Shown here: piece after piece, positions 10,845 to 12,498 of the stretch
How positions within the stretch are numbered: position 1 is the first letter of the stretch
Layout of the letters: each line of letters begins with the position of its first letter
Origin: Ignavibacteriota bacterium
Lineage (GTDB): Bacteria; Bacteroidota; Ignavibacteria; UBA10030
Direction: 5' to 3'
Assembly: GCA_963727825.1 (NCBI GenBank)
Contig: CAVSHO010000010.1
Span: 64,001 to 128,000, forward strand
Length of the DNA: 64,000 nt
Program-made: the position numbers and the translations under genes
Notes under the pieces: model-generated
Seen by the model: the letters and a program-made list of their open reading frames with translations, nothing else
What the model was told of the DNA's origin: nothing
The model's database searches: none

Positions 10845-10897
10845 TGGGGTGTAGCCAAGCGGTAAGGCATCCCGCTTTGCGGGACACTCTCAGGTTT
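10845..10897 (+). pseudogene. tRNA-Gln-like copy A (3' truncated, anticodon arm replaced)
   Basis: First 25 nt identical to the real tRNA-Gln, then TCCCG-CTTTG-CGGGA, then CACTCTCAGGTT. Ends in the T-loop. Confidence 0.85.
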
Positions 10898-10913
10898 TGT
10901 ATCGAGAAATTAT

Positions 10914-10985
10914 TGGGGTGTAGCCAAGCGGTAAGGCAGCGGCCTTTGGAGCCGCCACTCCCAGGTTCGAATCCTGGCACCCCAG
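10914..10985 (+). tRNA. tRNA-Gln (anticodon TTG), the only intact copy of the array
   Basis: Acceptor TGGGGTG/CACCCCA, anticodon arm GCGGC-CT TTG GA-GCCGC, T arm CCAGG-TTCGAAT-CCTGG. Confidence 0.95.
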
Positions 10986-11003
10986 CAAGTTGATTGGAAG
11001 AAA

Positions 11004-11075
11004 ATGTTTTTTGTCTATGTTCTCAAAAGTCTAAATGGAAATTCAACCTTTAAGGAAATTATTGAGATGGATTAG
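11004..11075 (+). pseudogene. Internally deleted copy of the GIY-YIG nuclease gene
   Basis: MFFVYVLKSL|NGNSTFKEIIEMD* is the first 10 residues fused to the C-terminal residues of the ORF at 11173-11415. Confidence 0.85.
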
Positions 11076-11153
11076 GCGGTAAGGTATCCCGCTATGTGGG
11101 ACACCCCCAGGTTCTCCCGAAGGGACTCCTTCGGAGGAATCCTGGCACCCCAG
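11063..11153 (+). pseudogene. tRNA-Gln-like copy C (degenerate 5' end, replaced anticodon arm, 22-bp insertion in T-loop)
   Basis: GCGGTAAGG...TCCCGCTATGTGGGA-CACCCCCAGGTTC[TCCCGAAGGGACTCCTTCGGAG]GAATCCTGGCACCCCAG. Confidence 0.85.
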
Positions 11154-11172
11154 CAAGTTGATTGAGATAAAA

Positions 11173-11415
11173 ATGTTTTTTATCTATGTTCTCAAAAGTT
11201 TAAAAGACAATAGATTCTATATTGGACAAACGAACAATTTTTTATCACGCCTTCGCAGACATAACGAAGGAAGAGTACAATCGACGAAATATCGAGTTCC
11301 GCTTATACTCGTGTATTCGGAAAATTATGCGACACGAAGTGAAGCTATGGCAAGAGAGAGATACTTAAAGAATCTTAATGGAAATTCAACCTTTAAGGAA
11401 ATTATTGGGGTGTAG
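11173..11415 (+). CDS. Stand-alone GIY-YIG nuclease (small YhbQ/SLX1-like type, 80 aa)
   Basis: FIYVL...FYIGQT...RLRRHN...ARERYLK retains the Tyr, Gly, Arg, His and Glu motif residues. The last codons GGG GTG TAG are the 5' end of tRNA copy D. Confidence 0.9.
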   Translation: MFFIYVLKSLKDNRFYIGQTNNFLSRLRRHNEGRVQSTKYRVPLILVYSENYATRSEAMARERYLKNLNGNSTFKEIIGV

Positions 11416-11498
11416 TATAGGCGATAAGGCATCCCGCTTTGCGAGACACTCCCAGGTTCTCCCGAAGGGACTCCTCCGGAGGAATCCTGGCACCCCAG
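11406..11498 (+). pseudogene. tRNA-Gln-like copy D (altered D arm, replaced anticodon arm, 22-bp T-loop insertion)
   Basis: TGGGGTGTAG...TCCCGCTTTGCGAGA-CACTCCCAGGTTC[TCCCGAAGGGACTCCTCCGGAG]GAATCCTGGCACCCCAG. Confidence 0.85.
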
Positions 11499-11553
11499 CG
11501 TTGTTTTGTTCTATGGAAAGAAATAAAATGAAAATAATCGAAAAAGGAATTCA

Positions 11554-12498
11554 ATGAGCGAACTGAAGATTTTTTCGGGACGGGCAAATCGCCCATTAGC
11601 TGAACAAATCTGCAAAGAAGCAAATGTTCCTCTTGGAGAAGCCGCCATTCAAACATTTAGCGATGGCGAACTTTGGGTCAAATATATCGAGAACATCCGT
11701 GGTGACGATGTCTTTATTATTCAACCGACACAGCCGCCAGCAGAGAATTTGATGGAGTTATTGATTATGCTTGATGCTGCAAAACGTGCATCAGCAAAAC
11801 GTGTTACTGCAGTTATTCCTTATTTCGGATACGCGCGTCAGGATAGAAAAGATCAGCCTCGCGTAGCAATCAGCGCGAAATTAGTCGCAAATTTGATTAC
11901 GGAAGCTGGAGCTGATCGTGTGATAACAATGGATTTACATACAGCGCAAATCCAGGGATTCTTCGATATTCCCATGGATCATTTGTATTCATCGGCTGTA
12001 CTTATCGAGTGCTTCAAAAAAATGGATATTTCAAATCTTGCGGTTGCTTCTCCAGATGTTGGAAGCATTAAAATGGCACGTTCCTACGCCAAGCGGCTTG
12101 GTGCAGATTTGATTTTAATAGATAAGCGTCGTCCGAAACAAAATGAAGCAGAGATAATGAATATTATCGGTAACGTCGAAGGAAAGACTATACTTATTGT
12201 TGACGACTTGATCGATACCGGCGGAACATTCGTCAACGCAGCACGAGCATTGCGCAATAATGGCGCGAAGGAAATTTTCGGTGCCTGCACACATCCGGTC
12301 TTATCCGGCGACGCGTACCAAAAAATAGAGAATTCGGTCGTCAAGAAAGTCGTCGTTACCGATACGCTTCCATTAAAACAAACAAGTGATAAGATTCATA
12401 TTCGCTCTATAGCTCATGTATTTGCAGAAGCGATTCTTCGTACACACAGGAATGAATCTATCAGCTCACTATTTGATATTGATAAAGACAAGACTTAA
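11554..12498 (+). CDS. prs: Ribose-phosphate pyrophosphokinase
   Basis: FSDGE, PYFGYARQDRK, MDLH, DDLIDTGGT. Confidence 0.97.
   Translation: MSELKIFSGRANRPLAEQICKEANVPLGEAAIQTFSDGELWVKYIENIRGDDVFIIQPTQPPAENLMELLIMLDAAKRASAKRVTAVIPYFGYARQDRKDQPRVAISAKLVANLITEAGADRVITMDLHTAQIQGFFDIPMDHLYSSAVLIECFKKMDISNLAVASPDVGSIKMARSYAKRLGADLILIDKRRPKQNEAEIMNIIGNVEGKTILIVDDLIDTGGTFVNAARALRNNGAKEIFGACTHPVLSGDAYQKIENSVVKKVVVTDTLPLKQTSDKIHIRSIAHVFAEAILRTHRNESISSLFDIDKDKT

Follow-up and report, generated by a model that had tools for sequence, protein, structure and literature searches.

A GIY-YIG nuclease gene flanked by hairpin-patched tRNA-Gln copies in an Ignavibacteriota genome, and its relatives at tRNA genes of many bacterial phyla

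Introduction

Between a terminator-like hairpin and prs, the genome of Ignavibacteriota bacterium (assembly GCA_963727825.1) carries four head-to-tail units derived from tRNA-Gln(UUG), here called copies A to D, together with an intact gene for an 80-residue nuclease of the GIY-YIG family. The locus occupies positions 10845-11499 of a 64,000-nucleotide (nt) stretch of contig CAVSHO010000010.1 (positions 64,001 to 128,000, forward strand), which is referred to below as the window and whose coordinates are used throughout; its layout was established by direct reading and alignment. Three of the four copies have a hairpin where the anticodon arm should be, and two have a further insert in the T loop. 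Sequence comparison indicates that these altered tRNA-Gln copies form the disabled flanks of a selfish element, a small cassette with a nuclease gene that is sited at tRNA genes in many bacterial phyla. The anticodon-arm hairpin is probably the recognition motif of the cassette's own nuclease, which would resemble the Ssn enzymes that act on single-stranded DNA (ssDNA); we give this reading a probability of roughly 0.55.

Organization of the tRNA-Gln locus

The features of the locus are as follows.

10845..10898, + strand: copy A, the 5' part of tRNA-Gln with its anticodon arm replaced, ending within the T loop and adjoining the native upstream flank (this flank matches the empty sites L007 and L008 of related genomes)
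10870..10884, no strand assigned: hairpin of copy A, TCCCG-CTTTG-CGGGA, TCCCGCTTTGCGGGA (sequence reading, motif count)
10899..10913, + strand: 15-nt spacer between A and B, ending in gaaattat, the end of the GIY-YIG unit
10914..10986, + strand: copy B, the sole functional-looking tRNA-Gln(UUG) (ARAGORN; Rfam RF00005, 65.1 bits)
11004..11062, + strand: GIY-YIG gene remnant with an internal deletion, its first ~10 and last ~10 codons retained (open reading frame (ORF) 11004..11075; tblastn pieces)
11063..11154, + strand: copy C, with a degenerate 5' end, a hairpin variant and a T-loop insert (sequence reading, alignment)
11087..11101, no strand assigned: hairpin variant of C, TCCCG-CTATG-TGGGA, TCCCGCTATGTGGGA, with one G.T pair (sequence reading)
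11115..11136, no strand assigned: 22-nt double hairpin in the T loop of C, TCCC-GAA-GGGA followed by CTCC-TTC-GGAG (sequence reading, motif survey, fold)
11173..11415, + strand: intact gene for the 80-residue, single-domain GIY-YIG nuclease (Pfam PF01541, AlphaFold2, conserved catalytic columns)
11406..11499, + strand: copy D, full length, with a hairpin variant and a T-loop insert, adjoining the native downstream flank and prs (start 11554)
11432..11446, no strand assigned: hairpin variant of D, TCCCG-CTTTG-CGAGA, TCCCGCTTTGCGAGA, with one C.A mismatch (sequence reading)
11460..11481, no strand assigned: 22-nt double hairpin in the T loop of D, differing from that of C by one base (sequence reading, tblastn, fold)

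The locus is an array of units, each a tRNA copy plus a nuclease gene, at differing stages of decay: an intact gene lies between C and D, a deleted one between B and C, and a spacer remnant between A and B. The spacer appears to be the residue of a nearly wholly deleted nuclease unit, since its last bases equal the end of the GIY-YIG unit. The stop codon of the intact gene (TAG, 11413-11415) falls within the 5' end of copy D. The working tRNA is internal to the array, and it is the patched copies A and D that contact the native flanks.

On this stretch ARAGORN calls a tRNA for B only, and A, C and D have no Rfam tRNA match even at E <= 10. All three fail tRNA geometry: the loop at the anticodon position has 5 nt (3 if a C-G pair closes), the T loop of C and D has 29 nt, and A is truncated. 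Copy D nevertheless retains 7/7 acceptor pairs and its T stem, as the initial annotation had noted from the sequence.

A single-domain GIY-YIG nuclease

The window protein matches Pfam PF01541 over residues 1-71 (60.5 bits, cut-off 22.6; E 2e-16). NCBIfam yields only a sub-threshold match, to a model for group I intron endonucleases (20.8 bits, cut-off 56). Across 39 aligned sequences, from which the rows L071 and L082 had been dropped after a frame check because of stop codons, Y16, G18, R26, H30, T38 and E62 do not vary, and conservation is at least 90% at Y5, N31 and R55. The AlphaFold2 model (pLDDT 95.2) has a three-stranded sheet with helices in the order E-E-H-E-H-H. Its best Foldseek matches are 1zg2 and Slx1 (7cq2/7cq3, 6seh), with TMq of 0.63-0.72 and E-values that stay near 1e-3, so the fold assignment leans on sequence profiles as well. 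By profile and fold together, the nearest solved relatives are the UPF0213 proteins 1zg2 and 1ywl, followed by Slx1, and the protein is accordingly predicted to fold as a UPF0213/Slx1-type GIY-YIG domain. According to Pfam and AlphaFold2 its 80 residues comprise the catalytic domain alone, with no added DNA-binding domain.

Replacement of the anticodon arm

In copies A, C and D the 17-nt anticodon arm GCGGC-CTTTGGA-GCCGC has been exchanged for a 15-nt TCCCG..CGGGA hairpin with both flanks kept. Alignment bears out the initial annotation on this exact replacement; the start of the span had been set at 10869, one base ahead of the hairpin in copy A. Folded as DNA, the range 10869-10883, also one base 5' of that hairpin, gives -5.2 kcal/mol with a z of -3.76. 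The 3.12-Mb genome has 16 sites with the motif TCCCGNNNNNCGGGA as against none for the reversed control, and the TCCCG stem with loops of 3-7 nt ranks 2nd among 160 GC-matched 5-mer stems (47 sites, median 5).

Precise remodelling rather than random decay had been proposed for these copies. The motif count agrees with that view, but there were not three independent remodellings: the arm swap in A, C and D is shared by descent, because related genomes have the same hairpin. Some hairpin loops preserve anticodon-loop letters (CTTTG in the window, TTACA in the tRNA-Val copy of locus L086), a hint that the stems, not the whole arm, get rewritten. On these comparisons the arm hairpins are conserved, inherited parts of the cassette and not products of random decay.

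Empty, intermediate and occupied sites in the genus

The synteny of tRNA-Gln and prs is kept in the genus, and 11 loci of relatives were read. Four are clean empty sites (L007, L008, L010, L011) and four are occupied (L006, L009, L012, L013), while the remaining three (L014-L016) have a single tRNA preceded by sequence that reads as a decayed remnant. Among the occupied loci, L006 and L012 have an anticodon-arm hairpin (loops CTTTG and CTGTG) and an unaltered T loop; in L013 an arm hairpin (loop CAGTG) is accompanied by a different insert, placed at the identical T-loop position; and L009 combines an intact, divergent nuclease gene with a heavily remodelled tRNA copy. Because empty, hairpin-only and hairpin-plus-insert states all exist, the arm swap and the T-loop insert are separate, inherited events. 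These states indicate that the arm swap is older than the T-loop insert and was inherited by A, C and D, and that the cassette comes and goes among close relatives.

A contig from an RNA library (X15, corresponding to window positions 10925-10968 joined to 11482-11615) holds a relative's tRNA-Gln copy beside prs in which the native anticodon arm is kept. At precisely the T-loop position of the other inserts it carries a different one, 30 nt long and made of two hairpins with 6-bp stems; the contig's origin in such a library is no proof of transcription. None of the public runs contains the window's own locus (best share 0.15), and their contigs cover just the tRNA and prs of relatives, uncovered parts being uninformative.

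The cassette at other tRNA genes of the source genome

The genome contains 12 GIY-YIG paralogues (tblastn), 10 of which lie within ~165 nt of a same-strand tRNA gene: two Pro, three Ser, two Leu (one with two gene copies), Asp and Gln. Every tRNA-linked paralogue has, on its other side, a partial copy of that same tRNA with GC hairpins. In the tRNA-Pro(GGG) copy a 22-mer of the type found in the window fills the T loop with its second stem compensated (TCAC/GTGA), and the tRNA-Leu(CAG) copy has CTGCCTGCCGGCAGGCAGG at position 24/25.

Fragments of tRNA genes with hairpins are also present where there is no nuclease gene, at C7:252591, C9:401644 and C11:148495. At C7:252458-252650 a tRNA-Ala(CGC) gene is followed by a patched partial copy, and at C9:401560-401800 a patched partial copy precedes tRNA-Met; in these copies the anticodon arm or D loop is replaced by a TCCCG hairpin, and the Ala copy has a T-loop double hairpin. 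The patched Ala and Met copies look like relics of lost cassettes, as no nuclease gene remains there.

Recurrence across bacterial phyla

A protein scan returned 80 related loci in Ignavibacteria, Bacteroidota, several Patescibacteria lineages, Nitrospirota, Verrucomicrobiota, Micavibrio, Calditrichota, Chloroflexota and others, with the reservation that phylum labels of metagenome bins may be wrong. Since these loci were picked by similarity to the window protein, percentages over them describe this subfamily. A tRNA gene lies within 250 nt at 67/80 loci, on the same strand without exception, and the 13 closest homologues (54-64% identity), from Ignavibacteria, Bacteroidetes, Moranbacteria, Gracilibacteria, Saccharibacteria and Micavibrio, are all at tRNA-Gln. 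Within the window's order the nuclease family is present in 55/61 genomes, mostly in several copies. One array, L156 (G002:C2:364300-369156), has at least 14 tandem units with a period of ~298 nt and reaches the contig end; each unit is a tRNA-Pro pseudo-copy with a TGGCGC..GCGCCA hairpin as its anticodon arm, followed by an intact-looking GIY-YIG gene.

Hairpins accompany these genes. The density of perfect GC hairpins is 7.09 per kb up to 250 nt from the ORFs as against 1.43 per kb beyond; 51 of those near ORFs start with TCCCG, the next commonest start being CCCCG with 12. A perfect [TC]CCCG hairpin is found near 40/80 loci, and a GC hairpin with a stem of at least 6 bp at 67/80, on both sides in 23 of the 67; the same stem occurs twice at 24/80. 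The consensus across loci is TCCCG followed by A or C, and the interior covaries: at the two stem pairs just inside the core, 60 distinct TCCCG hairpins have 90 Watson-Crick, 4 G.T, 8 A.C and 12 other combinations. Among one-mismatch hairpins near nuclease genes, G.T was seen 3 times and A.C 6 times, counts too small to separate RNA from DNA. Beside related nucleases this TCCCG stem takes the place of the anticodon arm in ten phyla or more. The motifs are thus neither confined to the window nor detached from GIY-YIG genes.

Chaining of tRNA matches yielded 85 events of insertion or replacement, with L061 excluded since the ARAGORN calls there are the patched copies themselves. An exact 17-nt deletion of the anticodon arm accounts for 15 of the 85 (Gln, Ala, Ser, two Pro and Leu copies) and pure T-loop insertions for 7; the other helices were left whole in 62, where 38.4 would be expected under a null that is lenient for pure insertions. 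No uninterrupted full-length duplicate of the neighbouring tRNA was seen in the event listing outside L061. In a protein tree (82 sequences, poorly resolved), hairpin type requires 18 changes (minimum 27 in 100 shuffles) and tRNA identity 30 (shuffled minimum 40), so that hairpin and nuclease are co-inherited.

Some patched copies, in L061 (249-1139), from a Haliscomenobacter metagenome-assembled genome, and in L086 (1426-1854), are called as tRNAs by ARAGORN with odd anticodons, among them a 'tRNA-Ser(gga)' on a Pro body and anticodons of 2 and 4 bases. Such calls arise because the TCCCGA hairpin is readable as a 5-bp stem with a 7-nt loop, and patched copies are a likely source of tRNA annotation errors.

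The T-loop insert, a dispersed 22-mer

Both 22-nt inserts sit between GGTTC and GAATCC with no duplication of target bases, at the positions and in the manner initially annotated. The two folds proposed at that time, twin hairpins or a single stem, are both possible: a nearest-neighbour model, which gives no bonus for the C-GAA-G mini-hairpin, favours the single stem for copy C (-7.5 kcal/mol) and the twin form for copy D (-3.6 kcal/mol, not better than shuffles). Covariation supports the twin-hairpin form, since the second stem is perfectly complementary at 22/32 sites in 13 versions. At L019 both loops have changed together (to AAA and TTT), which is also compatible with a single long stem.

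The 22-mer pattern TCCCGAAGGGA-N4-TTCG was found in 33/401 genomes of a phylum sample, mainly in the window's class and with up to 131 copies in one genome (G030, same order), as against 2 hits in total for the reversed control. Most of the 53 distinct sites examined are outside tRNA-like DNA; the T loops of patched copies carry the 22-mer repeatedly (Gln, two Pro and Ala in the source genome, Pro in G009). A preference for the loops of existing hairpins was considered and yielded no clear rule, with flanking stems of at least 4 bp at 6/53 sites against 5.6% in the control; striking placements in a terminator loop (L122) and in T loops are single cases. As it is dispersed mostly away from tRNAs and has no general loop preference, we treat the 22-mer as a separate, tiny palindromic repeat with covarying stems.

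Within G030, where 4 nuclease matches were scored, the 22-mer often lies inside longer repeated units with further CTTCG-type mini-hairpins. The source genome has another, unrelated repeat family, at 42 sites (for example C12:12036-12417 and C9:377759-378532), that consists of the paired hairpins GGGAGTTnnACTCCC and GGGAGAACATCTCCC with the conserved flanks agttggga.. and ..tcacaactt.

Comparison with known systems

The closest parallel is SsnA, a 94-residue single-domain GIY-YIG enzyme reported to bind the hairpin repeat NTS (CGTCATTCCCGCGMAVGCGGGAATCYRG; core TCCCGCG..CGCGGGA) solely as ssDNA, to cut a few bases upstream of it when oriented flanks (CGTCA.. and ..ATCYRG) are present, and to be inactive on double-stranded DNA and RNA (Chenal et al. 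2025, PMC11893778). According to the same report, regions of Ssn homologues have at least one hairpin motif in 71% of cases and motifs on both sides in 42%, and hairpin types pair with nuclease lineages (PMC11893778). The window cassette shares with this system a tiny single-domain protein (80 residues) and a gene flanked by GC-rich hairpins, often on both sides; in the window they lie in C upstream and in D downstream. The window hairpin has the stem TCCCGC/GCGGGA in common with the NTS core, and Y6, Y17 and E64, which were mutated in SsnA, correspond to the conserved Y5, Y16 and E62. Unlike in the published system, the hairpins here are inside tRNA gene copies, with an arm replaced or a loop filled, and the nuclease gene adjoins a working tRNA. 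In the main text of Chenal et al. tRNA goes unmentioned, and in the available supplements it appears only in gene names (PMC11893778).

NTS itself has relatives in the source genome, with 11 NTS-like elements at up to 3 mismatches from the central 24 nt (control 0). The one at C14:46550 is a perfect match to the published 28-nt consensus, and at C7:171146-171517 two near-consensus Neisseria NTS hairpins in inverted orientation flank a GIY-YIG paralogue that is not linked to a tRNA and is 33% identical to the window protein. A composite dispersed repeat of about six copies (C1:104686, C8:109386, C9:49903, C9:74375, C9:858517, C12:61790) has three or four consecutive GC hairpins, NTS-like GTCAC-TCCCGCG..CGCGGGA-GTC plus TCCCGAC..GTCGGGA and TCCCGC..GCGGGA, and resembles a BIME-type cluster.

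A second point of comparison is SegB of phage T4, a free-standing GIY-YIG homing endonuclease encoded in a tRNA gene cluster, whose 27-bp site contains the conserved T-psi-C stem-loop motif (PMC2330249) and which has been reported to promote segmental amplification (PMC2330249, PMC13096335). Common to both are a GIY-YIG gene among tRNA genes, a target logic built on conserved tRNA-gene sequence and spread along with neighbouring tRNA DNA; segmental amplification by SegB has its counterpart in the common tandem arrays seen here, and presence or absence among close relatives (4 clean empty and 4 occupied sites among 11) is also in keeping with homing of this type. SegB, however, is a multi-domain phage enzyme that cuts duplex DNA, is not accompanied by hairpin-swapped pseudo-tRNAs and is not a chromosomal cassette of many phyla; homing of its type relies on a nuclease with a DNA-binding domain for a long site, whereas the window protein is a catalytic domain alone.

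In the REP/BIME-RAYT and IS200/IS605 systems an enzyme gene is likewise flanked by short hairpin repeats that are recognized as ssDNA and also multiply away from the gene. Their enzymes are HUH/Y1 transposases with covalent intermediates and no link to tRNA genes, whereas a GIY-YIG hydrolase alone cannot transfer strands. Mobile GC-rich mini-elements of two hairpins have reportedly been described in Allomyces mitochondria by Paquin, Lang and co-workers, a resemblance that we regard as a lead only. A free-standing GIY-YIG ORF of Allomyces is also said to carry a part-copy of its target gene and to leave a displaced pseudo-copy; that target is protein-coding, and no arm-for-arm swap is involved. 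Both REP/BIME repeats with RAYT transposases and IS200/IS605 are named in the discussion of Chenal et al. (PMC11893778).

For the 22-mer, a relevant precedent is the mini-hairpin DNA GCGAAGC, which has been described as extraordinarily stable (PMC13037366). The first hairpin of the 22-mer has a C-GAA-G core, as does the complementary strand, but its second pair is CC..GG and not GC..GC, and the reported stability is that of GCGAAGC, not of this exact sequence. Our literature search found no paper that ties GIY-YIG or Ssn genes to tRNA-gene duplicates or hairpin-patched tRNA copies. GIY-YIG fusions with tRNA methyltransferases were described by Dunin-Horkawicz in 2006 (PMC1564403), the available part of which does not mention adjacency to tRNA genes.

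Proposed mechanism and alternatives

The cassette consists of one working tRNA gene, a same-direction gene for an 80-residue GIY-YIG protein and spare tRNA copies, partial or whole, that bracket it, and we read the window locus as a tandemly amplified, partly decayed copy of it. The nuclease would bind the TCCCG..CGGGA hairpin in ssDNA and cut beside it. The hairpin would have two effects: it would abolish the tRNA function of the spare copy, and it would set nuclease-specific break points within homology arms derived from a tRNA. Such breaks may drive duplication and deletion of the cassette and its copying into other copies of the same tRNA gene, a mechanism that would account for arrays, losses and spread between phyla. 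The 22-mer would be a second, later layer: it would have entered the T loop of a copy that was disabled by then, and the duplication of C and D would have followed. The initial annotation had linked the hairpins, as marks at the DNA level, to the GIY-YIG nuclease encoded beside them; this agrees both with their recurrence at GIY-YIG loci and with the binding of such hairpins as ssDNA by Ssn. Its further suggestion of repair scars is not supported: different phyla share the same stem sequences, and these track the nuclease lineages, a pattern not expected of scars.

More tentatively, and with clearly less confidence than for the recognition motif itself, we suggest a donor-initiated homing that is programmed by hairpins: an Ssn-type nuclease with its cut-site hairpins placed in tRNA copies would make breaks that expose near-universal tRNA homology arms, enabling amplification in place and copying into that tRNA gene in unrelated bacteria. 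Homing of this kind, in a class of selfish DNA spread over many bacterial phyla, would differ both from homing by cleavage of the recipient and from transposases.

Several results weigh against the hairpin being the recognition motif of the cassette's own nuclease. The window protein is nearest to UPF0213 structures and is not a named Ssn member; its identity to the NTS-flanked paralogue is also just 33%, so the hairpins could have that paralogue, acting in trans, as their cognate enzyme. The window hairpins do not have the oriented NTS flanks that SsnA requires, and the published degenerate SRM pattern, which includes the oriented upstream GTC, gave 8 hits in the genome and 8 in the reversed control, none of them at tRNA-linked loci. 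Perfect TCCCG-type hairpins occur at only 40 of the 80 loci, the others having different hairpins or none. Host phylum is clustered on the protein tree too (26 changes against a shuffled mean of 39.8), and co-inheritance of hairpin and nuclease does not, for that reason, prove co-evolution. The copy number of the 22-mer does not track that of the nuclease (131 against 4 matches in G030), and the precision of the base-for-base arm exchange lies outside what the mechanism explains.

The proposal that the hairpins are immunity marks is possible, though we consider it unlikely. Here a SegB-like enzyme would cut intact tRNA genes as duplex DNA at an anticodon-arm and/or T-loop sequence, and hairpin patches would destroy the site in the spare copy. 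It would fit the 22-nt insert, which splits the SegB-type T-psi-C motif at the centre of TTC^GAA, the recurrence of unrelated inserts at the same T-loop spot, the way in which nuclease clades track tRNA identity, and a presence and absence among congeners that is compatible with homing. The working tRNA beside the nuclease nevertheless retains both sites and would remain cuttable, which leaves it unprotected; L006 and L012 lack a T-loop insert altogether; the protein is a catalytic domain of 80 residues with no DNA-binding domain; and different phyla share the same stems, although a site could be disrupted without any conserved hairpin sequence. About equally unlikely, in our judgement, is that independent miniature palindromes of the host settle in dispensable DNA or hairpin loops, their nearness to GIY-YIG genes reflecting the dead tRNA copies available there. 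The 22-mer does behave in this way, being dispersed far from tRNAs in numbers unrelated to nuclease copies; TCCCG hairpins are found in composite dispersed repeats and singly; and three hairpin-bearing tRNA fragments have no nuclease gene. Such an origin is difficult to reconcile with one TCCCG stem replacing the anticodon arm beside related nucleases in at least ten phyla, with hairpin types that track nuclease lineage, with a density that drops five-fold beyond 250 nt from the ORF, and with the finding that loop insertion is no general rule.

It was also suggested at the outset that copy D yields a tRNA-shaped RNA. That the remodelled copies, chiefly D, give rise to functional RNAs of this shape, as decoy or antidote for the nuclease or as signals for mRNA processing or stabilization, now seems improbable. 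Copy D does retain its acceptor and T stems, the arm-for-arm swap preserves a four-arm outline, co-transcription with the tRNA is likely since the copies are on the same strand with no space for a promoter of their own, and an RNA-library contig that spans from tRNA-Gln into the start of a relative's nuclease gene is a weak hint in the same direction. Set against these are the failure of A, C and D to match the tRNA model at E <= 10, a predicted RNA fold of D that is not a cloverleaf, acceptor pairing that is broken in C and in the L006 and L012 equivalents, and the many copies elsewhere that are truncated to halves. The inner stem pairs of the 60 TCCCG hairpins (90 Watson-Crick, 4 G.T, 8 A.C, 12 other) also speak against an RNA, as does SsnA, which is reported not to act on RNA. 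Least probable of all, and in our view scarcely credible, is ordinary decay of duplicated tRNA genes combined with chance palindromes: C and D each have point changes in hairpin and body, from which decay does appear to be ongoing, but chance would not be expected to produce exact replacement of a 17-nt arm in six kinds of tRNA, a motif count of 16 against 0 and a stem conserved across phyla.

Implications

If the hairpin is indeed the recognition motif of the cassette's own nuclease, tRNA genes in many phyla, including the ultra-small Patescibacteria, would host a common parasite that has gone unrecognized. This would explain many annotations of 'pseudo-tRNA', 'tRNA fragment' and odd anticodons, as well as assembly breaks at tRNA loci. 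It would also provide a second biological setting for Ssn-type ssDNA nucleases and a natural library of nuclease and hairpin pairs for ssDNA tools, and it raises the question of how a bare 80-residue hydrolase and a 15-nt hairpin could move a gene between phyla.

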